DNA of 44,529 bases from a virus. The stretch lies in the IMG/VR virus record IMGVR_UViG_3300022930_000005, positions 1 to 44,529 of that record; one strand, given 5' to 3'. The position numbers were made by a program, and so were the translations under genes. Shown one piece after another: positions 3,777 through 34,074 of this stretch. Numbering within the stretch: the first letter of the stretch is position 1; each line of letters begins with the position of its first letter. The notes beneath the pieces are model-generated. The model was not told where the DNA came from and did not search any database. It saw only the letters and a list, made by a program, of their open reading frames with translations.

Positions 3777-6727
3777 TCGCCTACAGCCCGACCCCTACGC
3801 CTACCGGCGCGAACCCTTGGGACAACGACCCGGTTGTTGGCGCGCCTCAAGCACCTGCGCCAGTACAGCAGCGTCCGCAGGCCGGGCCTATTTTCGTCCC
3901 CGGCGTAAAGCAGCGCGACCCTATCCAAGACGAACGCGACCGCCTTGCAGCAGAGCAGGCGCGCATCAATATCGCCAAGTCTCAGCAGCCGGATTTGCCC
4001 ACCGGCTATCGCATGGGACCAAACGGCCAAGCCGAGCGGATTCCCGGCCTGCCGGTGGAAAGTGGTGCGCAAGGCCCCAAGACCGAGGAAATGATGGCGG
4101 CGGCTCGGGTCGAGGCGTTGGACAAACTGCGCCTTGCCCGCCGTCTGCGCGATCGTTCGAAGGAGGGGTATTTTACGGGGTCGGGCTATCAGACGCTAAA
4201 GGGCATCCCGATTATCGGGCAGAATGCCTATGACTTCGAAGCCGACACGGACACGCTCAAAAACGCAGCCGCATTGCAGCGCATCATGGAAATGGCGCAG
4301 GCGAACGGCGGCAAGAACCCGCTTACCCCGCTGTCCAACTCCGACTTTCAGGCGCTTGCGAGCAGCTTGACCAGCCTTGACCCGCGCTCCAGCGATGATC
4401 AGTACCAGCGCAATTTGCAGGTCACCGAAGACCTCTATCGGCGTATGTACGAGCAGGCAGGCGGTAAGGATTTGGATGGCGACCTGGCTGGCCATTCCAA
4501 CGTCGAGCACCGCGAACTGGACGCAAACGGGCGCCCTAAGATGCTCGCCGACGAACAATTGAAGCGTGGTGACGAAGCCGCGCCGATCATTGGTGCGCGC
4601 GTACCCCCTGAAATTGCAGGTCAGGTGTCGCAGGCGATCCATGCCAACAATCGCGAGGAAGTGAATCGGCTTTACGGTGCGCTTGGCTTGGCTGGCCCGA
4701 GCGATGCGAATTGGGAAGCCGTCCGCAAGGTAGCGGTGCAGCAGCCAAACCATGTATTCGGCACCGATGCCAGCGCTTTGGACACTGCTGCACAGAACGC
4801 TTACGACAAGAAGCGCTATGGCGAATACCTCCCTGTCGAGATGGCCCGTATCAAGGCGCAGGGCATGGAGGGGCAGGCCGGTACGGCGCTCGCTGGCTAT
4901 GGCGACACGGCCACCTTTGGGTTCGCCGACGAAATTGGCGCGGCTGGCGATACGCTGCTGAGCGGTGGCACGTTCAAGGACAATTTGCAGCGCGTCCGGG
5001 CGGGCATGGAAGCGGGAAGCCGCGTCAATCCAGGCTCGCGCTTTGCAGGCCAAATGGCTGGCGCGCTTAGCCCGCTAGGCCGCGTTGGCACGGCGATCCG
5101 CAGCGGCGGGGCGGTTCGCGAGGGCGCTATCCTCGGCGGCGCGTATGGCGTCGGTTCGTCCGATCCAAGCCCCGAAGGCACAGCGGCAACCCAAATCGGG
5201 CAACGTGCGACTGGCGGCGCATTGGGTGCGCTTATCGGTGGGGGAACCGCTGGCGTGCTCGGCGCTGCGGTCAACCGCGCCGGGCGCCCGCCTACGCCTC
5301 CCGGTGGGCCGCGCGCTGCCGACATCGCACGAGCTGCGGACGAAGAGGGCATCCAGATCAGCCGCCCGATCGTAGATCCTTCGCGCCGCGATGCGATGTC
5401 CTATCTGGAATCGTCAATCGGTGGCGGCGGACCTGTGCGGCGCTCGCTTGCCGCCACCTCGGAAGGGCTGGAAACTCGCGCTGGCGAACTCGGCGCGGGC
5501 GGTACTGCGCTGGACGAGTTTGGCGCAGGCTCTGCGGTGCAAGGCGCGGCGCGGCGCTTTATCCAGGAAAGTGGCGGCAGGGCGCGTCGCATGTACGACC
5601 GTGCGGCGGAATTGGCTGGTGACACGCCTGTGCGCGGGCAGGAAGCGCTTGCCGCACTCGACAACCAGATCGCCGATCTGTCGCGCAACGCCAACCAGAA
5701 TGCGCCGCTAATCCGCTATATGCAGGAAGTGCGAGGCGACTTCGTCGATGAAGCGGGCAATCTGATCAACAAGGGTGTCGGCGACATTCGCGATATTCGC
5801 ACCGGGCTGCGTGGCAATATCAGCAATCGCGGGCTGACCGGGACGGACGCTGACCGCCGTATGGGCATGGTTCTGGACGCAGCTACCCGCGACATCACGC
5901 GCGACCTTGGTGCAGCGGCTCCGCGTGCAGTTGCCGAGTTCCGCCGTGCCGACACCTTCTACCGTGAACGCCAGAGCGAAATCAAAAACGTCGTACAGCG
6001 CGTTCTCGGGGCAAGCCGTCGCCAGAGTGATCAAATCAGCCCTGAGACGGCATGGCGCAACGTTCGGGCAATGGCAGGGCCGAAAGGCGATAGTGCGGCG
6101 CTGGCGCGTCTGTGGCGACGGTTGGAGCCGGGCGAGGCACGTGATGCCGCCGCTAGCCTTGCCGAGACGTTTGGCCGACGCTCTGCCGATGAACCTTTCT
6201 CGCCCGCGAACTTCATCAACTCGGTTCGCGGAATTTCCGGGCCAGCCCGGCAAACCTTGTTCGGTCCGGAAGGCGCGCGCTCGATTGCCAATCTGCGTCT
6301 AGTGGCCGAGGCGTATCGCGACACCGCTGCCCGGTTGAACAACTCGCGGTCGGGGCAAGTGATGCAGTGGGGCAATTTCCTGCGCAATTTCGTGCCGAGC
6401 GCTGGTGCCGGCGCGGCTGGGGGCGCTGTACTTGGCGGGCCTGTCGGCGCGGCAGTTGGCGCAAGCCTTGTGGCGGGTAGTGGTGTCGGCGTGCGCAATA
6501 TCTCGGCGCGTATGCTGATGTCCCCTAATATGTCGCGCTGGCTCGCGCAGGCCGCACGCCAGACTACGCCGCGTGGCATTGAACGCCAGATCGAGCGCCT
6601 TCGCCTTGTCGCCACCCGCGATCCTGCAATCGCACAGGATGCGCTCGGGTTGCAGCAGTACCTCCAGCGCGCGATTGCTGAGACGCCATCAAGGGCCGCT
6701 GCCACCGGACGCGATGAAAACCAGTGA
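3773..6727 (+). CDS. large internal virion / DNA-ejection protein (984 aa)
   Basis: ATGA overlap at 3773. Ala/Gly/Arg-rich with Gly-zipper hydrophobic stretches ([19 protein letters not shown]; [30 protein letters not shown]). Its position matches P22 gp20/gp16-type ejection proteins. Confidence 0.55.
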
Positions 6728-6823: not shown

Positions 6824-9800
6824 ATGGCTAACCTATTCCAGCCCTCACTTGACCGAGTAACGGACAGCAACGGCGATCCGATCAGTGGCGCGAAGATGTA
6901 TTTCTGGGCAACCGGAACCTCAACGCCAATGACCTTCTACGCGGACCAAGCTGAAACTGCGCCGGGAACAAGCCCGCTGGTTTCCAATTCGGTGGGGCTA
7001 TTCGCGCCCGCATATCTGGACGCGGCAACTACCTATCGGATCAAACTGACCAACTCCACCGGCTCGCTCACGATTTGGGATGTTGACCCGGTTCGCGGCT
7101 ATGATGAAGGCATGGTGCAGACCGCTTCGGCGGCGGCTGTTGCTGCGGCTGCGCAGGCGGTTGCCGCGCGTGATGTGGTTGTCCCGCTCGCCGCGCAGGT
7201 ATCCGATGACGCCGACGATGCGGAAGCCGCCGCGCTAATCGCAACCGGTGCCGCCAACTCCGTCCTCAACTACAAGGGCACCTTCGCCACGACCGCCGAC
7301 GCGCTATCGAATGGCGTCCTGTCCAATGCCGCTATCACGGGCGGCACCGGCGGTACCAACGGCACGTTTGACGGCACGGTAACGGGCGGTGGCGGCAGTG
7401 GCGCGGCGTTCCGGTTTGTAGTAGCTGGCGGTGCCCTGACGCAGATCGTGTGGCAATCGGCGGGACGCGGCTATACGACGGCGCCGACGCTCGGGTTCGC
7501 GGCATCGGCTGGGTTGACCGGGGCGTCGGCAACGGCTGTCATCGGCGCGAACACGGTGGTTGGCGACTATTTCGCTATCCCGAGCGCGCAGGGTGGCGGG
7601 TTGTTCGATTGGTATGTCGTGTCGGCGGGGCCTGTTGCGACCTATTACCGGACGGCACCGAACGCGGATGCAGTGATTGCGGCGGTCAGCCTTGCGCAGC
7701 AGCTTACCGGCACGTCGCTTACCCGCGTTGGTATCTCGACGGCGACGGTCGGGCGCACGAACTACGACAACGCCTTTTCCAATCTGACCAACGTCTATAT
7801 CTCGGCAGACGCTACGCAACTGGACGGCGTATTCACCTCGCTTATCGTTAACGCCGGGTCGGCGGGCACGGGGCGCTTCATCCTTCTCGATGGCGACCGC
7901 AAGGCGATTTACGAAGGGCCGACACAGACCATTGCGGGTGCCGGCCTTTACACTCAGACGGGCATGAGGGTTGACGCGCCAGCGGGCACGCGCATCGGCT
8001 TCCAATGGCTGACCAACGGCGGGTTGAGCAACGTCCGCTACAACGCCGCGTCGCCTGGCGGATTCTTCACGGTTGCGGGGTATGGCGGCGTCGGCTCAAC
8101 CGTCACGATTACCGAAAGCACGGTCAACGGCGCGGCGGTATCCGGCGTGCTGGAAACTGCTGCCGCATCGTCTCAGGTGCAGATCTATGGGTTGACCGCA
8201 CGCGAGGATGCGACCGACCGGACGCGCATCAATTCCGCTCGCCGCGCCAATGCCATTACCAGCGGCGGAAATTACACCGAACTCGCGGTTGCTCGGGATG
8301 CTGGCTACCAGTCGCCAGAAGGCTCTTATATCGAGGCCCTTTCCGGGACGTTCATTTTTGGCGCAACGATCGCGACGCTGCGCAGCGATATCATTCGCCG
8401 GCCAACCAATTCCGCTGCGGTGAATGCGGTGCCGTTTGCGGCCAGTACGGGTGATGTCACGCTCCACACCTTCTACACGACGCCTGCCGCTTTGGGTGCC
8501 GTCTCGGGCCAACCGATCGATGCGGTGTTCACGCCGAACAAGCAAATCCGCGAAGATCCGAACTTCATCTATATCTGGCGTCTGCGCGCCTACACCTCCA
8601 CGGGTGCGGCGGCGAGCGCGATGGAAGTTGGCACGGCCCCATCCAACAACACGGTTGGCCGGTGGAAGGGCTGGACCAACGGGGCGTCTACCGCGTCCGT
8701 TGACCTCGCTATGGGATTTGTCACGCGCGGCGCTCGGGTCACGACGTTCGACGACCGAATCGTCGGCGCGGCAATGACCAGCAACGGCCTTGGCGCAACG
8801 TTTGAAGTCCAATTGTCTCGCGTCGGGCAAATGAAGCGCATCCCGGCATCGTTCACCTTCACCGCCCCGACCGGCACCAAGCGCTATGATCGCGTCGTCA
8901 TCGATGTTGAAACCGAGGTAGTTTCGGTTTTGGCCGGCGGCGAGGATGGCGCGGCGACGATAACCGGGACCGCGCCAAATGTCCTGAGGCCCGACGCTAC
9001 CGAGCGCATGGCGGCGCTGACTTCGCCGACGCAGCTCCTTATCGCCAACGTTCGCGTCGGGGCTACGTCGCTGACCATTATTCCGCAGTGGGATTTGGAC
9101 AATACCGGCCTGCCCCGCTCCATCGCCAAGCAGCTTGTCGAGGATGAGCGGTTTAATGATCAGGCGCTCGGTATTTTCCGGCGCGCGCTATATGGGGCTG
9201 GCGTCGTTCCGATCATCGCATTGATGGGCGACAGCCTTATGGCAATCGCCAACGGCACGGCACCCGACACCTCGCCCAATGGCGTGAATCGTGATCGCGG
9301 CACCGCGCCCACGACCGACTCCCTCCACTATCTGCGCGACGGGCTTTCCGATGCCCTTGTGGACGATACCACGCGATTCCCGCTCTACACCGCCGTGCAA
9401 CTCAACCGAGCGGATGACGGCGCGGGCGCAGTCCATACGAAGGTTGGCTTCGCTTGGGCTGCGATCAGTCGGTTAGAGGCCGCATCGGTCAAACTGGTGT
9501 CGGCAGGGCAAATGAGCCTTGTCAATTGGGCGGCGGCTGGCTCTACGGCAGCAGCAGCGGTTTCCGGAGTAGCCAGTGACGGCACCGGCACACCAGCCGC
9601 GACTACGTTCCTGACGGCGGTTCGTGACGGCGTAGCGACTGGAGCAGGTGGGAAACCGCACCTTGTCATCTGCAACTACGGCATGAACCCATCGGCCTCA
9701 ATTGCCCAATATCGAGCGCAAATGGCGTTCATCGTGCGATACCTCCGCGCCGCCGGGATTAGCGTCCTGGTCGTCGGTGTCGGCCTGAAGCGTAGCAACG

Positions 9801-24028: not shown

Positions 24029-24117
24029 GTCCGTCCTCCCGCCTGCCAGCTTCCCGGATTGGGGCTGGCGGTGTGGCATTGGTTTGGGCGATGCGGATGC
24101 GGGTGTCAACACAGTTT

Positions 24118-25421: not shown

Positions 25422-25609
25422 ACTGCCGAGGCGAAACCCATTCCAGCGCCAAGCTGACCGAAGCACAGGTACGTGAAATTCTCACGGCCTATGCGGATGG
25501 CGAGCAGTTGGCGTCGCTGCACCGCCGCTTTCCCCAATGCTCGAAACCAAACCTGCATCATATCGTGAATGGCCGGCGATGGGCATTTCTGCACGGGGTT
25601 GCGCTATGA
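25418..25609 (+). CDS. small HTH protein (63 aa)
   Basis: GETHSSAKLTEAQVREILTAYADGEQLASLHRRFPQCSKPNLHHIVNGRRW. ATG 25418 is internal to track ORF 25352..25609. Confidence 0.5.
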   Translation: MNCRGETHSSAKLTEAQVREILTAYADGEQLASLHRRFPQCSKPNLHHIVNGRRWAFLHGVAL

Positions 25610-25866
25610 CCGACACCAGCCCCAAGCTATACCTCTCCCTCGCAGCGGCTACGGCCATCTACGAACGGGTCAGCGCTGAAACCGGCGTGCCGATGGATAA
25701 GCTTCTAAGCGAAAGCCGTGAGCCAAATATCGTTCGGGCGCGCCGCATGGTTATGGCAGCGATGCAGGACCGTGGCGCATCGGTGATGATGATCGGCAAG
25801 CGAATGCAGCTCAATCATTCGTCGGTGATCTATGGCCTGCGAAAGTACCAGGAACTAGCAGCATGA
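25606..25866 (+). CDS. DnaA domain IV-like (DnaA-box-binding HTH) stand-alone protein (86 aa)
   Basis: LLSESREPNIVRARRMVMAAMQDRGASVMMIGKRMQLNHSSVIYGLRKYQEL aligns by eye with E. coli DnaA [54 protein letters not shown]. Confidence 0.65.
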   Translation: MTDTSPKLYLSLAAATAIYERVSAETGVPMDKLLSESREPNIVRARRMVMAAMQDRGASVMMIGKRMQLNHSSVIYGLRKYQELAA

Positions 25867-26108: not shown

Positions 26109-26194
26109 CGGATGACACTCAACAATGGCTCGGGTGCTTTGCGCTTATAGCCATAATCGCAATTTGCATCACCGCGTGCGTCATATTCGCATGA
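26105..26194 (+). CDS. micro-ORF, TM helix (29 aa): MTDDTQQWLGCFALIAIIAICITACVIFA
   Basis: Not in the track. ATGA overlaps at both ends. Several ATA/ATT codons are atypical for this genome. Confidence 0.4.
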   Translation: MTDDTQQWLGCFALIAIIAICITACVIFA

Positions 26195-26625
26195 CCTTCT
26201 TCGACGCCCTCGAAACCGACGACCTGCGCAAGCCGGTGCTTCATCCGGCAATATACGTAGAGCCGCGCGATAAGGACGCGGCGAGCGAGGACGATCGACA
26301 AGCCGAGTTCATCGCCACCATGCGCAGGACAGCGCTCGCTTGCCGGGTGTACGCGGTGCCCAATGGTGCCAAGCGATCCAGGTGGGAAAGCGCCAAGGTG
26401 AAGCGGGAAGGGCTGGCGTCGGGCTGGCCTGATACCGGCACGCGATGGGCGAATGGGCACGCGGATATCGAGTTCAAAAACGGCACCGCAATGCCAACGC
26501 CGAATCAGATCGAAACGCTCAACTGGCTGCATCTGCGCGGGCATCATGTCGCGGTTTGCAGGACGGCGGCTGGCGCTATGCGATGGCTGCGCGAGGTTGG
26601 GGCGCCTGTGCCGATTATCGCTTGA
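26191..26625 (+). CDS. VRR-NUC domain nuclease (144 aa)
   Basis: GWPDTG...HADIEFKNGTAMPTPNQIETLNWLHLRGHHVAV fits the D...E.K...Q VRR-NUC core. Confidence 0.7.
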   Translation: MTFFDALETDDLRKPVLHPAIYVEPRDKDAASEDDRQAEFIATMRRTALACRVYAVPNGAKRSRWESAKVKREGLASGWPDTGTRWANGHADIEFKNGTAMPTPNQIETLNWLHLRGHHVAVCRTAAGAMRWLREVGAPVPIIA

Positions 26626-28625: not shown

Positions 28626-28683
28626 CCCTAACCGAGCGCTAAACACCCCGCCTTGCGCCGCTTCGTGAATGGGGTAAGGTGGC

Positions 28684-28723
28684 GGGCGGACGGACCGAGA
28701 GTGTCGCGCTCTCTGGCCCGCCC
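28684..28723 (+). terminator. imperfect stem-loop in the 126-nt gap before the replication genes; an alternative pairing is possible
   Basis: gggcgg (28684-28689) pairs with ccgccc (28718-28723). An inner gagag/ctctc stem (28697-28701 / 28709-28713) is present, followed by tgacttt. An upstream cccgcc (28647-28652) could instead pair with ggcggg (28681-28686). Confidence 0.3.
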
Positions 28724-28751
28724 TGACTTTGGCATAGGAGCTGCCTCCGCT

Positions 28752-29351
28752 ATGAATGATTTACCCCAAGTGCGCGTGCCTATCAAGCCGCGTTCAAAGC
28801 CGCCCAAGCCTCTTTTGCCGACTGAACAGCGTGTCGCGGATGCCGTGGCAGGAATGCGCGCGGCTGAGAAGCGCCAGTACCGTATCAGCTACGGCATGTG
28901 TCCTTTGTGCGGGCTGGAGGCGGCGCCTTATTATCTGTGCTTTGCGTGCCGCCAAATTAAATCCCTGTCTCGAACTTTGAATCGGATGCACGATGCGGGG
29001 ATCGTGGCAAAATCGCGGAAAGGCCGGAATTCGCTGTGGCACGTCGAAAAAGACAAGATCGATGATGTCGCGGTTATGGACGTTCGCGGCTCGCTATTGG
29101 TGGGAATCAAGGATGGTGACAAACGCCTGCGCCCTCGCATGGGTGGCCGTCCGATCGACCTCGACGAAACGTTGATGAGCATTTTTGCCGTCGCCGGAAA
29201 GCCGTTGACCGAGGATGAGGTTTATTTTGCCTGGGGCAACCTGCGCACAACCCGAAAGCGCGCATCCCTCGCTTCGGATATGGCGGCTATCATTAACGCG
29301 CAACGGAAGCGTGATCGACGGGCTGCCAAATCCAAGACCGCTGCCCAATGA
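28752..29351 (+). CDS. hypothetical protein with a CxxC...CxxC element, upstream of the helicase (199 aa)
   Basis: AGGAG 28736-28740 precedes ATG 28752. Contains CPLCGLEAAPYYLCFAC and a basic C-terminus. Confidence 0.5.
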   Translation: MNDLPQVRVPIKPRSKPPKPLLPTEQRVADAVAGMRAAEKRQYRISYGMCPLCGLEAAPYYLCFACRQIKSLSRTLNRMHDAGIVAKSRKGRNSLWHVEKDKIDDVAVMDVRGSLLVGIKDGDKRLRPRMGGRPIDLDETLMSIFAVAGKPLTEDEVYFAWGNLRTTRKRASLASDMAAIINAQRKRDRRAAKSKTAAQ

Positions 29352-30598
29352 CCGCGCGCGACGATATGCCAGACAACGTGATCCAGTTCGCGCCGAGTGC
29401 GCCGGATAGTGCGGACGACTTCAACCGCGAGCCTGACCTAGAAGGCGACTGGATCGCCGCCTGTACACCCACGGTATCGAAGCTAACCGCCACCGCGTTC
29501 CAATGGCGTGCGGAATCCGAGCTACCCCCCCGCAAATGGCTGTACGGACGGCACCTGCTGCGGAAGTTCCTGTCCGTTGACGTGGCAGCCGGCGGCGTCG
29601 GCAAATCCTCGCTCAAGATCGGCGAGGCGCTGGCTATGGCATCCGGCAAGGACCTCTACGGGCAAACCCTGCATGAGGGCGCGCTCCGGGTTTGGATTTA
29701 CAATCTCGAAGATCCGAACGAAGAAACCGAGCGCCGTATCCACGCCACGGCCAAGCAGTTCAACATCCTGCCCAAAGACCTTGGCGACCGGCTCTATGTG
29801 GACTCAGGCCGGGATCAGCGCTGCGTCATAGCCGAGGAAACCCCGAACGGTGCGACAATCGCCAGGCCGGTGGTCGACGCCCTGATAGCCGAGCTGCGTG
29901 AGAAGCGCATCGATGTCCTCAGCATCGATCCGTTCGTCTCCAGCCATGCAGTCAGCGAGAACGACAACATGGCGATCGATATGGTCGCGAAGGAATGGGC
30001 GCGCATCGCCGACATCTGCGATTGCTCGATCAATCTGGTGCATCACGTCCGCAAGGGGAATGGCGCCGAAGCCAACGCCGATTCCGCGCGCGGTGCATCC
30101 TCTCTGATCGGAGCGGCCCGCTCCGTCATGGTGTTCAACCGCATGTCCAAGGAAGAAGCCGAGAAACTTGGCGTCGCCGAGGACGAAGCCCGTTTCTTCT
30201 TCCGCGTCGACAACGACAAGGCCAACCTCGCGCCGCCGGGTTCGACCACGTGGTATCGCATGAACAACGTCGATCTGGACAATGGCGATGCGGTCGGTGT
30301 CGCCTGCCCTTGGAAGCCGAAGGACTTGTTCGACGGCATCACGACGGCGCACCTGATGCGGGTGCAGAAGGCCGTTGGGGCGGGTAACTGGCGCGAAAGT
30401 CCGCAAGCGAGCGCTTGGGTTGGACATCCTGTGGCGGAGGCATTGATGCTTGATGCGGAAGACCAGCGCGACAAAAAGCGCATCATAGGAATGCTCAAGG
30501 AATGGGTGCGCAACGGCGTCCTGGAGGTGGTCGAAGGCGAGGACGCCAAGCGCATGAAACGTAAATTCGTCGTGGTAGGGAATTGGGTGACAGAATGA
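29348..30598 (+). CDS. RecA-fold replicative helicase, RepA/AAA_25-like (416 aa)
   Basis: Walker A is VAAGGVGKSS, the Walker B-like element is VLSIDPF, followed by INLVHHVRKG...ARGASSL. Confidence 0.75.
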   Translation: MTARDDMPDNVIQFAPSAPDSADDFNREPDLEGDWIAACTPTVSKLTATAFQWRAESELPPRKWLYGRHLLRKFLSVDVAAGGVGKSSLKIGEALAMASGKDLYGQTLHEGALRVWIYNLEDPNEETERRIHATAKQFNILPKDLGDRLYVDSGRDQRCVIAEETPNGATIARPVVDALIAELREKRIDVLSIDPFVSSHAVSENDNMAIDMVAKEWARIADICDCSINLVHHVRKGNGAEANADSARGASSLIGAARSVMVFNRMSKEEAEKLGVAEDEARFFFRVDNDKANLAPPGSTTWYRMNNVDLDNGDAVGVACPWKPKDLFDGITTAHLMRVQKAVGAGNWRESPQASAWVGHPVAEALMLDAEDQRDKKRIIGMLKEWVRNGVLEVVEGEDAKRMKRKFVVVGNWVTE

Positions 30599-30840
30599 GG
30601 ATCAGGATCGAGACCTTGCCCGAGCCGGGCTTCGCAGTAAGCGTCGGGCCGTCTAAAATGACGCTGCTGGCGTACGCCGATTACACACGCAGGGACGGCG
30701 AGGAAACCCGATTAGGCGTGTGGGAAGTCGAGTGCAAAACCTGCGGGGAGCCATTTACGACGCGCATGACGTCGCATATTCTCCCCGAAACGAAGCGGTG
30801 CGAAAAGCATCGCAGGCCGGTTAGAGGGGCTTCGAAATGA
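30595..30840 (+). CDS. small protein with a CxxC...CxxH element (81 aa), last gene of the rightward operon
   Basis: ATG 30595 overlaps the helicase TGA (ATGA). Contains ECKTCGEPF...KRCEKH. Confidence 0.5.
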   Translation: MRIRIETLPEPGFAVSVGPSKMTLLAYADYTRRDGEETRLGVWEVECKTCGEPFTTRMTSHILPETKRCEKHRRPVRGASK

Positions 30841-30875
30841 CCTTGCCTCACCTTCAAATCGTAAGTGAGGCAAGG
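30841..30875 (+). terminator. perfect 11-bp hairpin directly after the last early gene
   Basis: ccttgcctcac (30841-30851) pairs with gtgaggcaagg (30865-30875) around a 13-nt loop. No U tract. Confidence 0.4.
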
Positions 30876-31000
30876 TGTGGCAAGTGTGGCGGATCGAATG
30901 GCCGAAATGTTGCCACACCACCACCCTCCCCTCGTAGAGGGTGGGTGGTGTGGCAAGGCATTGAGCGGGGATTTGAGAGTGCGCGGGTTAGGTGTGGCAA
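30874..31000. repeat. iteron cluster: GGTGTGGCAA at 30874-30883, 30947-30956 and 30991-31000, inverted TTGCCACACC at 30910-30919; 30910-30956 forms a ~19-bp-arm imperfect palindrome
   Basis: Read directly. There is also a partial copy GTGTGGC at 30884-30890. The arms gccacaccaccaccctc / gagggtgggtggtgtggc differ by one bulged base. Confidence 0.8.
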
Positions 31001-31052
31001 ACTGCACCCGCCCGAATGGGGAGCGCGGCGGAATAAAATTCTCACATGGCTG

Positions 31053-31081
31053 TTGACATCACGTAAGGCGTCACGTAAGAA
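31053..31081 (+). promoter_or_regulatory. candidate late-block promoter TTGACA (31053-31058) - 17 nt - TAAGAA (31076-31081), with tandem TCACGTAAG (31059-31067, 31071-31079) in the spacer
   Basis: The -35 is perfect and the -10 is weak. It is followed by SD AAGGGAG (31094-31100) and ATG 31106. Confidence 0.4.
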
Positions 31082-31105
31082 CGGGGCAACAGCAAGGGAG
31101 TTGAG

Positions 31106-31324
31106 ATGATGACTGAACAGCAGATCAAGTTCTTCAACCGCGTCGCCATCAAGATGGTGCCAGGCATGGACATGGAAACTGCAATGAAGGCGGTTCTTGC
31201 TGATGACCGCGCGGCCATTGCGAAGGTCCAAGGCATGGGTTCATATGACCGCGCTGCCTTTGATCAAAAGCTCTCCAAGCAAGTTTTCGCTTCGATCCAT
31301 ATGAGGGAGGCTCTCGCAGCATGA
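31106..31324 (+). CDS. hypothetical protein (72 aa)
   Basis: SD AAGGGAG lies 5 nt upstream. First gene after the boundary region. Confidence 0.6.
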   Translation: MMTEQQIKFFNRVAIKMVPGMDMETAMKAVLADDRAAIAKVQGMGSYDRAAFDQKLSKQVFASIHMREALAA

Positions 31325-31488
31325 CCCCCAACGCCAGATATCAGGCCAAGTACCGCGAGCGCTATGTGCGGCGGGGAAACGCGCTTGAGGCAATCCTTGT
31401 GTTGATTGGTCGGGGGCATTCAGTTGAGGATATTCGGCTCGTTGCTGAGGCTGGGTTGGCTAAGGATGTGGCGGGTGGGGAGGGTTGA
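31321..31488 (+). CDS. micro-ORF (55 aa): MTPNARYQAKYRERYVRRGNALEAILVLIGRGHSVEDIRLVAEAGLAKDVAGGEG
   Basis: Not in the track. ATGA overlap upstream. Confidence 0.45.
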   Translation: MTPNARYQAKYRERYVRRGNALEAILVLIGRGHSVEDIRLVAEAGLAKDVAGGEG

Positions 31489-31501
31489 GGTGAACGAGAT
31501 A

Positions 31502-31726
31502 ATGGACGATGCTTCGCAGTACGATATGCGCGAGGCGATGGGTCTTAGCTGCTTCAGCCTGGAGTTTCTGACGCGGTTCAATCCGTTCATGCTGCCCACT
31601 CACAGGCTCAACCGTGAGACGGGGCTATACGATCGCTATGACTGGTTGAAGAATTTGCCGCCCTACGTTTTGGAGGCTGAGTTAGATATACCTCCGCCGC
31701 TCGGTCCGAACTTTGAAGGAGAATGA
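31502..31726 (+). CDS. hypothetical protein (74 aa; alternative GTG 31490)
   Basis: GGGGAGGG lies upstream. The track ORF's earlier part overlaps the previous micro-ORF. Confidence 0.5.
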   Translation: MDDASQYDMREAMGLSCFSLEFLTRFNPFMLPTHRLNRETGLYDRYDWLKNLPPYVLEAELDIPPPLGPNFEGE

Positions 31727-31728
31727 TG

Positions 31729-31974
31729 ATGGAAGCGAAAGACCCGCTGTTTCTCAAATGCCTCGCATTCATCCGTGAAATATCTGAAGGCGAGTGGACG
31801 GACCAGATCGAAAATGGGGATGCTAAAAAGCTTGAAGCTTTTGTCCGGGGCATTCTTTCGGATGATCCGCCTGACCTCAAAGCCGACCAAGCCCTGCGCG
31901 AGAACGCCGACCTGCGCGAACGGGTGCTGAGGCTGGAGCGGGCGGTTAGTGCGTTGCAGGGGAGGTATCAGTAA
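31729..31974 (+). CDS. hypothetical protein (81 aa)
   Basis: GAAGGAGAATGATGATGGAAG: the third ATG (31729) has 7-nt SD spacing. Lower GC than its surroundings. Confidence 0.55.
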   Translation: MEAKDPLFLKCLAFIREISEGEWTDQIENGDAKKLEAFVRGILSDDPPDLKADQALRENADLRERVLRLERAVSALQGRYQ

Positions 31975-31997
31975 GTTTCAACCGAAGGAGAATGACG

Positions 31998-32249
31998 ATG
32001 GAAGATGAAACGATGGGAATGAGTTTAGCCGCAATCCTTCGCGCGCAGCCCGATCCGCAGTGGCAGGCGGAACAGCGTGCGCGCGAAGAGGCGTATGAAA
32101 AGCAGCAGGCCGAGCGGTTTGCGGCTGAACTTCGCACCACGGCGCTGCAATTTGCACTCGCTGCCCAGCATGGCGCGACCGAGCGCACGGAAGATACTAT
32201 CGCCGCAGCGGCCAAGTTCGAAGCGTTCTTGGCTGGCATCCCAATCTGA
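31998..32249 (+). CDS. hypothetical protein (83 aa)
   Basis: GAAGGAGAATGACGATGGAAG: ATG 31998 has 7-nt SD spacing. Confidence 0.55.
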   Translation: MEDETMGMSLAAILRAQPDPQWQAEQRAREEAYEKQQAERFAAELRTTALQFALAAQHGATERTEDTIAAAAKFEAFLAGIPI

Positions 32250-32313
32250 CCAGGCAACCCGCCGCTCGGTCCCATCTTGACCTTGCGGCAGGAATGGGGG
32301 TAGAAACTGCACC

Positions 32314-32460
32314 ATGCCCATCGCCCTCATCCTCCTTGTCGCCGCGTTCGTGCTGTTCGTGATCGATGCTTTCACAGTGCAGTCCAGGTTCAACCTCACT
32401 GCTGCGGGGCTGGCTTGTGTGGCGGCGTTCTTCATCCTTACGCATGGGATGGTTGGTTAG
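32314..32460 (+). CDS. micro-ORF, 2 TM (48 aa): MPIALILLVAAFVLFVIDAFTVQSRFNLTAAGLACVAAFFILTHGMVG
   Basis: Not in the track. Third positions are strongly GC-rich. Weak SD. Confidence 0.45.
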   Translation: MPIALILLVAAFVLFVIDAFTVQSRFNLTAAGLACVAAFFILTHGMVG

Positions 32461-32489
32461 GGTGGCGTCGAAAGTAGACGAGGCTAGAC

Positions 32490-32780
32490 GTGGCAAAGGG
32501 CGTTAAGACCGGCGGGCGCATAGCGGGCACTCCGAACAAGGCTACAGCCGATCTCAAAGGCTTAGCCAGGGAATATACCCAAGAGGCCCTAGATGGCCTT
32601 GTGCGCGTTCTGCGGAGCAGCGAGAGCGACCAAGCCCGAGTAGCCGCTGCCAATTCCATCCTTGATCGCGGCTACGGCAAGGCGTCGCAAGTCCTGTCGG
32701 GCGATGAGGACGGCGGGCCCATAAAGACCATCACCCGCATCGAGCTAGTGGCGCCAGAGCTTGTCGATAGCGAGGGTTGA
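32490..32780 (+). CDS. putative terminase small subunit (96 aa)
   Basis: GTG start. GGRIAGTPNKAT...RVAAANSILDRGYGKA resembles small-terminase families ending in ..A...lLDRGyGKp. It lies directly upstream of, and overlaps, terL. Confidence 0.45.
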   Translation: MAKGVKTGGRIAGTPNKATADLKGLAREYTQEALDGLVRVLRSSESDQARVAAANSILDRGYGKASQVLSGDEDGGPIKTITRIELVAPELVDSEG

Positions 32781-34074
32781 GCTTCCCCCTAAGCTAATCC
32801 CGGTGTTCTCAGGCGCTGCCGACACTAGGGGCGCATACGGTGGCCGGGGAAGCGCCAAGACCCGCAGCTTCGCGATGATGACGGCGGTACGGGCGCACAT
32901 GTGGGCGCAGGCTGGCGAAGAGGGTGTGATCCTGTGCGGGCGCCAGTACATGAACTCACTGGCGGACAGCTCGCTTGAGGAAATCAAGGCTGCGATCCGG
33001 TCGCAGGAATGGCTGGCCCCGCATTTCGACATCGGCGAGAAATACATTCGCACCGCCGACAAGCGTATATCCTACGTGTTCGCTGGCCTCGATCGCAGCA
33101 TCGCCAGCGTCAAGTCAACGGCCCGCATCAAGCTGGCCTGGGTCGATGAAGCCGAGCCGGTAATCGAGACGGCATGGTCAACGCTGATACCGACCCTGCG
33201 CGAAGAGGACAGCGAGCTGTGGATAACGTGGAACCCGGAGAGCAAACGCAGCGCGACGCATAAGCGATTCCGCGAGGCACATGATCCGCTGATGAAGATC
33301 GTGGAACTCAACTGGCGCGACAACCCGTGGTTTCCGAAGATCCTTAAACGCAAGCGGTTGAAGGACCAACGCGAACGCCCCGACAGCTATGACCACATTT
33401 GGGAGGGTGATTTCGTCACCGTGGTTGAAGGCGCGTACTTCGCCAAGAATTTGAGCGAGGCACGGACCAAGGGCCGCATCGGGCCAATCCAGCCAGACCC
33501 GTTGATGCGCTACCTCACGTTTTGGGACATCGGGGGGACTGGCCTGCGCGCCGATGCTCGAACGATATGGGTTGCTCAGTTCATCGGGCCGCATATCCGC
33601 GTAATCGATTACCGCGAGACGGTGGGCCAGCCGCTGTCCGCCGACGTCAACTGGCTGCGCGAAAATGGCTATGGCAAGGCGATCTGCGTCCTGCCGCACG
33701 ATGGCTCGACCAACGACCGGGTGCACGATGTCAGCTATGAAAGCGCGCTGCGAGCTGCTGGCTTTGAAGTGGCCGTGATAAAGAACCAGGGCAGGGGTGC
33801 GGCGATGCTCCGGGTTCATGCCGCGCGCCGCCTGTTCGCTAATATTTACTTCAACGAGGAAAAGTGCAAAGCAGGGCTTGAAGCGTTGGGCTGGTATCAC
33901 GAGAAGAAGGACGAAGCGCGCGGTATTGGTCTAGGGCCGGAACATGATTGGGCCTCACATGGTGCCGATTCCTTCGGGTTGATGTGCGTGGCGTTCGAGA
34001 TGCCGACCGACGACCGAGGCGACGAGGACGACGAACACGAAACGCGCGGGCGTTCCTCTATCACGGGGTATTAG
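32761..34074 (+). CDS. terL: terminase large subunit (437 aa)
   Basis: Walker A is YGGRGSAKTRS and Walker B is KLAWVDEAE. A C-terminal nuclease-like region (VLPHDG...HGADSF) is present. TTG 32761 is the only in-frame start upstream of the P-loop. Confidence 0.9.
   Translation: MSIARVELPPKLIPVFSGAADTRGAYGGRGSAKTRSFAMMTAVRAHMWAQAGEEGVILCGRQYMNSLADSSLEEIKAAIRSQEWLAPHFDIGEKYIRTADKRISYVFAGLDRSIASVKSTARIKLAWVDEAEPVIETAWSTLIPTLREEDSELWITWNPESKRSATHKRFREAHDPLMKIVELNWRDNPWFPKILKRKRLKDQRERPDSYDHIWEGDFVTVVEGAYFAKNLSEARTKGRIGPIQPDPLMRYLTFWDIGGTGLRADARTIWVAQFIGPHIRVIDYRETVGQPLSADVNWLRENGYGKAICVLPHDGSTNDRVHDVSYESALRAAGFEVAVIKNQGRGAAMLRVHAARRLFANIYFNEEKCKAGLEALGWYHEKKDEARGIGLGPEHDWASHGADSFGLMCVAFEMPTDDRGDEDDEHETRGRSSITGY

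Follow-up and report, generated by a model that had tools for sequence, protein, structure and literature searches.

A probable iteron-type replication origin beside the RepA-like helicase gene of a phage genome and its predicted recognition by the helicase C-terminal domain

Introduction

Between positions 30841 and 31105 of the virus record IMGVR_UViG_3300022930_000005, a spacer of 265 nucleotides (nt) crowded with hairpins, short repeats and a promoter-like element separates the early genes, which end with a RepA-like helicase gene and one small open reading frame (ORF), from an operon that leads to the large terminase gene. The whole stretch of DNA that was analysed, 44,529 nt and here called the window, resembles a complete temperate phage genome. 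An earlier note made from the sequence of the window had described the spacer as one boundary element and had read it as an origin of replication and/or a late promoter. The locus thus raises the question of which function the repeats serve, which protein might read them, and whether repeats and promoter belong together. Based on sequence comparison and structural models, we consider that positions 30841-31000 are probably an iteron-type replication origin, bound by the RepA-like hexameric helicase of the phage through a C-terminal winged helix, and that the helicase would itself be the initiator. Loci compared with the window are designated by L numbers.

Results and Discussion

Seven iterons and a palindrome in the spacer

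The first part of the spacer contains the following features.

30840-30851 and 30865-30876: arms of the first hairpin, 12 bp, 100% complementary
30843..30852, minus strand: iteron 1, variant GGTGAGGCAA with one mismatch, in the left arm of the first hairpin; equals the +4 site of relatives
30853..30864: 12-nt A/T-richer spacer TTCAAATCGTAA between the first inverted iteron pair; YGAAAAnnnnn in relatives
30865..30892, plus strand: three tandem direct iterons, GTGAGGCA at 30865, GTGTGGCA at 30875 and the partial GTGTGGCG at 30884
30910..30956: central palindrome, a G+C-rich inner stem enclosed by one inverted (30910-30919) and one direct (30947-30956) iteron
30991..31000, plus strand: last direct iteron, the +150 site of relatives

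The array comprises seven sites in 160 nt, four of them exact, one variant and two further variant or partial copies. Exact copies of GGTGTGGCAA stand at 30874 (+), 30910 (-), 30947 (+) and 30991 (+), and the partial copy GTGTGGCGG spans 30884-30892. The repeats, the hairpin and the palindrome were all recovered where the earlier note had placed them, and its judgement that they lie far beyond chance was borne out, with one correction: the perfect hairpin has arms of 12 bp and not of 11 bp. The genome-wide count that it had proposed, allowing up to one mismatch to GGTGTGGCAA, gave eight matches in the window, where 2.8 would be expected by chance; this number was not reached in any of 100 shuffles. 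Three near-copies outside the region, at 7447, 24070 and 36602, equal the chance expectation (about 2.8), so that the copy at 24070, which had been taken as meaningful, carries no weight.

The tandem iterons at 30865..30892 are spaced 10 and 9 bp, about one helical turn (the pattern +26/+36/+45 of relatives), which would place them on the same face of the DNA. The arms of the palindrome run from 30910 to 30922 and from 30944 to 30956, with inner arms at 30921-30928 and 30937-30944 and the apex CCCC-TCGTAGA-GGG. Folded as single-stranded DNA, positions 30838-31003 reach -41.2 kcal/mol (z = -5.64), and 0 of 200 shuffles were equally stable.

The ORF 30837..31109, which covers the spacer, has a G+C content at third codon positions (GC3) of 0.53 versus 0.71-0.76 for the neighbouring genes, gave no tblastn match in 59 related loci and has no Pfam or PHROG match. 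We conclude that the stretch is non-coding, as had been proposed, and the conservation of its repeats in relatives indicates that it is functional.

The array is tied to the helicase gene in related loci

The genes that precede the array are as follows.

29348..30598, plus strand: RepA-like replicative helicase (AAA_25, superfamily 4 (SF4)/RecA-fold), 416 amino acids (aa), Pfam AAA_25 E = 4.9e-42
30344..30595, plus strand: helicase C-terminal domain, residues 333-416, predicted winged helix
30595..30840, plus strand: small Zn-ribbon-like ORF, 81 aa from ATG 30595 or 85 aa from TTG 30583

Relatives of the helicase were collected from IMG/VR (59 loci, 40-76% identity), from GTDB genomes (26 further loci in Sphingomonas, other Sphingomonadales, Rhizobiales, Ponticaulis and Cypionkella), from two Logan contigs (L086 and L087, helicases 83% and 85% identical) and from PLSDB (four full-length matches on plasmids of 31-54 kb). 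With a threshold of E <= 1e-20, the family amounts to at least 1,749 proteins, which are encoded by prophages and phage-plasmids of Alphaproteobacteria. A 7-mer occurring at least four times in the 300 nt past the helicase stop was detected in 64 of 70 loci (37-85% helicase identity) versus 10 of 139 coding controls; besides IMG/VR, GTDB and Logan loci, this set included two of the plasmids. The cassette is physically tied to the 3' end of this helicase family in prophages and phage-like plasmids of Alphaproteobacteria: its onset lies 0-15 nt after the helicase stop codon in the relatives, and counted from this stop the conserved sites are +4(-), +26, +36 and +45(+), +70(-), and +109, +118 and +150(+). 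The first half of this layout consists of an inverted iteron, a 12-nt A-rich spacer, two to three direct iterons 9-10 bp apart and a spacer of about 20 nt; the second half consists of an inverted iteron, the G+C-rich palindrome, one to two direct iterons, a spacer of about 35 nt and the last direct iteron.

Seven of the eight canonical sites are held in register in the window, counted from the stop of the 85-aa ORF at 30840 and not from the helicase stop at 30598, which lies 243 nt ahead of the array. The Zn-ribbon-like ORF that here separates the helicase from the array has a GC3 of 0.71 and gave no match in Pfam, PHROGs or NCBIfam. Its homologues were found directly 3' of the array in ten relatives (L001, L009, L013, L018, L023, L025, L060, L065, L068 and L070; 5366-5605 in L001, 6366-6605 in L060), which implies that the order of gene and array has been swapped in the window phage. 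GGAATGA short repeats present on both sides of the L001 array could mediate such a swap.

The hairpin exceeds the 95th percentile of the shuffles in 55 of 63 loci, and in 43 of 63 the apex has a C-run and a G-run that enclose a loop of 3-5 nt, either T/A-rich or CGTA. Inner stems vary widely, most being G+C-rich and those of L009 and L069 A+T-rich, yet they remain complementary, which argues that pairing itself is selected, beyond the flanking iterons. The same compensatory change, and the presence of two strong stems right after a stop codon, would also be compatible with hairpins that work as RNA where the early transcript ends, be it in termination, attenuation, processing or stabilisation, with the iterons as a by-product of stem conservation. 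We regard this as very unlikely, because neither stem is followed by a T-run, a terminator scan of 30841-31105 was empty, most iterons are direct repeats outside the stems and, as described below, the iteron sequence covaries with a protein domain. Moreover, no Rfam family was matched at gathering thresholds anywhere in the window, where an ARAGORN scan for tRNAs was likewise empty.

The gene that follows the array varies. It is ssb in L007, L010, L011, L017, L021, L022 and L061 and a Zn-ribbon ORF or an unrelated gene elsewhere, which assigns the array to the helicase and the replication module and not to the late operon. In Rhizobium phage RHph_X2_26, used as a negative control, no array is present, and the match of the primase-helicase extends as far as query residue 366, short of the C-terminal domain.

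Some further arrangements were noticed among the relatives. About 20 loci have the start codon ATG of the following gene, in many cases ssb, directly behind the last iteron (A/G)GGTGNNGCAAA, whose GGTG thus doubles as the Shine-Dalgarno sequence (L007, L010, L014-L018, L020, L021, L030, L042, L046, L053, L063, L070, L077 and L082, at about +136 to +175); the window does not have this arrangement. At 5182-5470 in L003, a full array is preceded by a partial duplicate of its first half. One contig of Methylobacterium cerastii (NZ_BPQG01000108.1; L074, L075) encodes two helicase homologues, 49% identical, with no array downstream, and these may be decayed or rearranged prophage remnants.

Iteron sequence covaries with the C-terminal domain of the helicase

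The helicase matches RSF1010 RepA (1g8y) at E = 1.7e-13 over its residues 76-306. Its AlphaFold2 model (mean predicted local distance difference test (pLDDT) score 83) retrieved 1nlf with Foldseek at E = 4e-16, followed by DnaB and T7 gp4. Compared with RSF1010 RepA it has about 110 more C-terminal residues. Modelled alone, the C-terminal domain reached a pLDDT of 92 with a helix-helix-helix-strand-strand topology, and its top Foldseek matches are all winged-helix proteins, namely PadR/LmrR (E = 6.6e-3, probability 0.99), BLM RQC and MarR. The tip of the predicted wing is D399-A-K-R-M403.

At least ten iteron types were distinguished among the loci: GTGTGGCA (window), GTGGGGCA, GTGCGGCA, GTGGAGCA, GTGGCGCA, GTTGGGCA, CTGGGGCA, CTGGAGCA, CTGGCGCA, GTGCGGAA, GTGACGCA and CGATGCA. 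Within one phage all copies change in concert, a pattern characteristic of repeats that co-evolve with a specific binding protein. We therefore followed covariation between iteron positions and about 350 alignment columns of 61 helicases, and for each of three iteron positions the column that tracks it best falls in the C-terminal domain.

Helicase residue 353, iteron position 1: Q with GTG in 44 of 45, R with CTG in 10 of 12
Helicase residue 402, iteron position 7: R with GCA in 48 of 49, G with GAA in 8 of 9
Helicase residue 403 (wing tip), iteron positions 4-5: M with TG, N with GG, R with GA, K with GC

Residues 402, 403 and 405, which covary with the iterons, are located within the wing tip or beside it. 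The residue rule had been formed on the IMG/VR loci and also held on genome loci fetched later, with N/GG in L062, R/GA in L063, L078 and L085, M/TG in L066 and L082, K/xC in L079 and L083, and R/GA together with R353/CTG in L067, L069 and L076. A near-isogenic triplet illustrates it: the window combines AKRMKRK with GTGTGGCA, L086 (83% identical) combines SSRRKRK with GTGGAGCA, and L087 (85% identical) combines TKRMKKK with GTGCGGCA. Among helicase pairs that are 70-97% identical in the ATPase core, residues 402/403/405 are the same in 52 of 93 pairs sharing an iteron type versus 16 of 322 pairs with different iterons. When the iteron type was predicted from the nearest neighbour in ATPase-core relatedness, 20 of 59 predictions were right. 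Among the other early proteins of the window, none is conserved together with the array in the related loci. This covariation suggests that iteron specificity tracks the C-terminal domain of the helicase itself, with Q353, R402, M403 and R405 as candidate specificity residues. The helicase, which the earlier note had pointed out near the array, thus becomes the likely binder.

The earlier note had also compared the CCACA core with a DnaA box and had named a protein consisting only of DnaA domain IV as a possible binder. In such a DnaA-dependent origin the iterons would be diverged DnaA boxes, bound by the product of 25537..25866 or by host DnaA. The gene product does match Bac_DnaA_C (Pfam, E = 1e-11), and the best fit, nTTGCCACA, agrees with TTATCCACA at six of nine positions. 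The CCACA core, however, is not kept in relatives with the same layout (GTGGAGCA, GTGGCGCA, CTGGAGCA and CGATGCA; also TGCTCCAC, TGCGCCAC and GCTCCAGT), which removes the argument from the DnaA box, and a homologue of the DnaA_C-only protein occurs in only 3 of 59 related loci (within 4 kb, in the fetched flanks). The iteron sequence covaries with the helicase C-terminal domain instead, and a DnaA-dependent origin appears extremely improbable to us. A role of the DnaA_C-only protein as a GafA/GafY-like transcription activator was also considered; the literature gave no binding motif for comparison.

The promoter-like element is a separate module

The remainder of the spacer, 31001-31105, lies outside the conserved cassette of the relatives and contains the following features.

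31053..31081, plus strand: promoter-like TTGACA-N17-TAAGAA, with TTGACA at 31053-31058 and TAAGAA at 31076-31081, read from the sequence
31059-31067 and 31071-31079: two TCACGTAAG boxes within the TTGACA/TAAGAA element
31082..31108, plus strand: conserved leader with the Shine-Dalgarno sequence AGGGAG (31095-31100) and ATG 31106 of the downstream operon; identical in L086 (GGGnCAACAGCAAGGGAGTTGAGATGATGA)

A sigma-70 consensus scan did not call the TTGACA/TAAGAA pair, because the -10 hexamer lacks the final T. In L086, the leader, TTGAC at -35 and the proximal TCACGTAAG box, which covers the -10, are all retained at positions 6590-6665; the hexamers there are TTGACG-N17-TAAGTG, so that the spacing and both elements are conserved. 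The second box, ATCACGTAA, is located in L086 upstream of the -35 instead of overlapping. An exact-match scan of IMG/VR for the leader CAACAGCAAGGGAGTTGAG found nothing, and the promoter module is thus compared with one relative, L086. No further meaningful copies of TCACGTAAG were found genome-wide in the window. As a side observation, the operator-like box (A)TCACGTAA occurs twice at the conserved promoter in both the window and L086, at positions that differ relative to the -35.

The L086 promoter lies 250 nt past the array of that phage, after a 54-aa gene. Array and promoter are therefore two separable modules, and the single boundary element of the earlier note falls apart into them. By its sequence, 31053-31105 is predicted to be an ordinary promoter with two operator-like TCACGTAAG boxes for the operon toward the terminase, a neighbour of the origin and not part of it. 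The late-promoter idea may apply only to these positions.

It could still be argued that the entire 265-nt stretch governs the switch from early to late transcription, with the iterons as operator or activator sites for the downstream late operon, bound by the helicase C-terminal domain or another regulator and possibly coupling late transcription to replication. Indeed, the array of the window is placed between replication genes and the operon leading to the terminase at 32761, a promoter with its boxes, conserved in L086, follows 50 nt downstream, and terL lies 1.3-3.4 kb from the array in several relatives, about 20 of which have the last iteron abutting the next start codon. The register of the array, however, follows the helicase stop codon and no downstream gene; the downstream genes vary, and those of the window have no homologue in the relatives. 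The separation of the promoter from the array in L086 points the same way, eight sites in two orientations plus a conserved palindrome exceed the usual needs of a promoter operator, and the array is also carried by plasmids with ParA and toxin-antitoxin genes. A transcriptional control region is unlikely on these grounds. Of the two functions that had been proposed for the spacer, the origin is the one best supported by the comparative evidence, whereas the link between the array and late genes found no support, since ssb is the next gene in at least seven relatives.

Replication genes, distant iterons and plasmids

Many relatives encode a DnaG-type primase (PF01807 plus Toprim), either fused to the helicase or directly upstream of it. 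In primase-fused relatives, the linker between primase and helicase contains one to two extra inverted iterons of the cognate type, located about 1,146 nt upstream of the stop codon of the helicase. These linker iterons (L004 2421-2439, L008 3949-3966, and in L007, L020 and L064) encode ATPATP in L004; they change with the iteron type and form a putative second binding site.

Two circular plasmids carry the module. On pVL1_6 of Methylobacterium indicum (NZ_AP024151.1; L090/L091), toprim, a RepA-family helicase and the array are accompanied by ParA, two toxin-antitoxin pairs, an integrase and a tape-measure gene; pR24_3 of Microvirga terrae (NZ_CP102848.1; L089) has toprim, helicase and array. 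The tape-measure gene, integrase, ParA and toxin-antitoxin pairs of pVL1_6 suggest that these replicons of 31-40 kb are likely phage-plasmids for which this module serves as replicon.

Short repeats arrayed in two orientations are also typical of parS/parC and of sites for the small terminase subunit. A partition (centromere-like), packaging (pac/cos) or copy-control handcuffing site, and not a start of replication, might thus be suspected here, the more so as two carriers are plasmids with ParA and as the extra cognate iterons of primase-fused relatives, 1.15 kb upstream, are reminiscent of the ori/crr site pair in phage P4. Linkage and covariation nevertheless concern the helicase and neither ParA nor the terminase, most carriers are prophages in the integrated state that have no par genes close by, and the distance to terL is variable; we therefore give such a function little credence.

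In Bartonella, the maximum of run-off replication maps beside a phage-derived helicase and an exonuclease, and the respective papers propose a lambda-O-like gene upstream of the run-off origin (PMC2697382, PMC3610622).

A possible initiation mechanism and points that weigh against it

If the array is an origin read by the helicase, several C-terminal domains of one hexamer might engage the tandem iterons along a single face of the helix, and the oppositely oriented iterons might recruit a second hexamer in the opposite orientation. The A-rich spacer 30853-30864 is a candidate melting site, and it could melt and/or the palindrome could extrude as a cruciform; either event would supply single-stranded DNA for loading of the SF4 ring. 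Priming would be carried out in relatives by the fused or adjacent DnaG-type primase. No recognisable primase is encoded in the window, and the host primase would serve here.

Beyond the assignment of the origin, we tentatively propose, with slightly less than even confidence, that these proteins represent a large, undescribed family of self-loading SF4 (RepA/DnaB-fold) initiator-helicases, in which the wing provides a code for an iteron of 8-10 bp and the origin is opened by a G+C-rich, cruciform-forming palindrome (C-run, TTTA/CGTA loop, G-run) and not by an AT-rich element.

Several points weigh against the helicase as reader and opener of the array. In the window, an ORF of 243 nt detaches the array from the helicase gene. 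A clear AT-rich DNA-unwinding element was not found between the opposed iterons: the only comparable feature is the 12-nt A-rich spacer, and in the window, as in 43 of 63 relatives, a G+C-rich palindrome occupies the centre of the array. The C-terminal domain matches winged-helix structures weakly (Foldseek E about 7e-3, template modelling score about 0.5), and profile searches with this domain against PDB and Pfam returned chance-level matches only. The pairwise covariation statistics are only partly corrected for phylogeny, and the residue-403 rule is imperfect, being right for 28 of 59 loci in leave-one-out prediction. Toprim and helicase are the sole annotated replication genes of pVL1_6 and pR24_3, a soft argument since PLSDB gene tables are incomplete. 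Helicases of the RSF1010-type SF4 group normally need a separate initiator (RepC), and an unrecognised one may be encoded elsewhere.

Relation to known replication systems

An iteron origin beside an initiator gene is a familiar kind of element, and an origin at this place is not surprising in itself. In the way it would work, the closest known system appears to be Rep/ori of the Staphylococcus aureus pathogenicity islands (SaPI), where a helicase doubles as initiator through its C-terminal winged-helix domain, 6-12 iterons in both orientations lie directly downstream of rep around an AT-rich centre, and binding and melting have been demonstrated in vitro (PMC9371898). On the phage side, a predicted winged helix at the C-terminus of the putative initiator-helicase, downstream iterons in two orientations, iteron types that differ between elements and a fused or adjacent primase match this architecture. 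SaPI Rep is, however, an AAA+ helicase of superfamily 3 (SF3) type with 3'-5' polarity, whereas the phage helicase is of the RecA-fold SF4/RepA-DnaB type, so that the resemblance would be convergent and not homologous. The origins differ as well: the SaPI ori has a central AT-rich region and iterons of 5-6 bp, the phage array a central G+C-rich palindrome and iterons of 8-10 bp.

With RSF1010 the relationship is reversed, as the helicase cores are homologous and both origins combine iterons with a large inverted repeat. The iterons of RSF1010 measure 20 bp, those of the phage 9-10 bp. RSF1010 RepA has no DNA-binding extension and depends on RepC as a separate iteron-binding initiator (PMC8965321), and the 40-nt inverted repeats ssiA/ssiB are used by the RepB' primase (PMC8567376). 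RSF1010 thus relies on RepC and on RepB' with ssi hairpins, whereas the phage relatives have DnaG-type primases; a RepC-like or RepB'-like protein was not found among the early genes of the window with Pfam, PHROGs and NCBIfam.

Multifunctional origin-binding proteins with a cis site outside the gene are also represented by P4 alpha and pRN1 ORF904. In phage P4, ori and crr form a pair in which a second cognate repeat set is located at a distance, comparable to the iterons 1.15 kb upstream in primase-fused relatives. Both P4 alpha and ORF904 differ from the phage protein in being SF3 helicases with prim-pol or P4-type primases. The lambdoid O/ori-lambda system shares the principle that a phage-specific initiator binds iterons and that its specificity co-evolves with the repeats. 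The lambda ori, however, lies inside the O gene with an AT-rich region flanking the iterons, and O, itself not a helicase, brings in host DnaB by way of P. For pRN1, ORF904 is described as a primase, helicase and origin-binding protein with its cis site downstream of the gene (PMC4234260).

In a 2022 paper, AAA_25 proteins are listed without a described function (PMC8965321), and our full-text literature searches gave no account of a helicase, AAA_25 or RepA-like, that reads iterons with a domain of its own. What would be new, if the assignment is correct, is that the reader is a RepA/AAA_25 helicase, whose plasmid prototype RSF1010 RepA needs a separate initiator; it would be the SF4 counterpart of SaPI Rep, P4 alpha and the viral SF3 initiators. 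A G+C-rich palindrome in place of an AT-rich element would raise the question of how an SF4 ring is loaded without a loader. Moreover, the system would offer a testable protein-DNA recognition code with at least ten natural orthogonal initiator/origin pairs, which could serve for incompatibility-free vectors in Sphingomonas and Rhizobiales, and origins could be annotated from sequence alone in well over a thousand Alphaproteobacterial prophages.

Genes around the spacer

The window is organised as follows.

About 0-14 kb: tail genes
14-24 kb: leftward block
25-30.8 kb, rightward: early block; small genes then follow
25537..25866: protein consisting of DnaA domain IV only
32761: large terminase (Terminase_3)
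34607: ORF of 649 aa

Searches of the small ORFs at 28653, 30583, 31106, 31321, 31723, 31992 and 32314 against Pfam, PHROGs and NCBIfam gave nothing informative. At the DNA level, comparison of 29300-32800 with GenBank phages gave a single weak match, to RHph_X2_26 in the helicase core. Cumulative GC skew was tried as an origin indicator and set aside as uninformative, as it tracks only the direction of transcription. The gene directly upstream of the helicase (28653-29351) overlaps the helicase start and encodes a 232-aa CxxC...CxxC protein with a faint match to an ArsR-type helix-turn-helix (E = 0.002); it occupies the position of the Toprim primase of relatives and has no homologue among the related loci. 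Finally, a nuclease-like gene (phrog_824; 26125-26625 in the window) accompanies the helicase here and in 25 of the 59 IMG/VR relatives.

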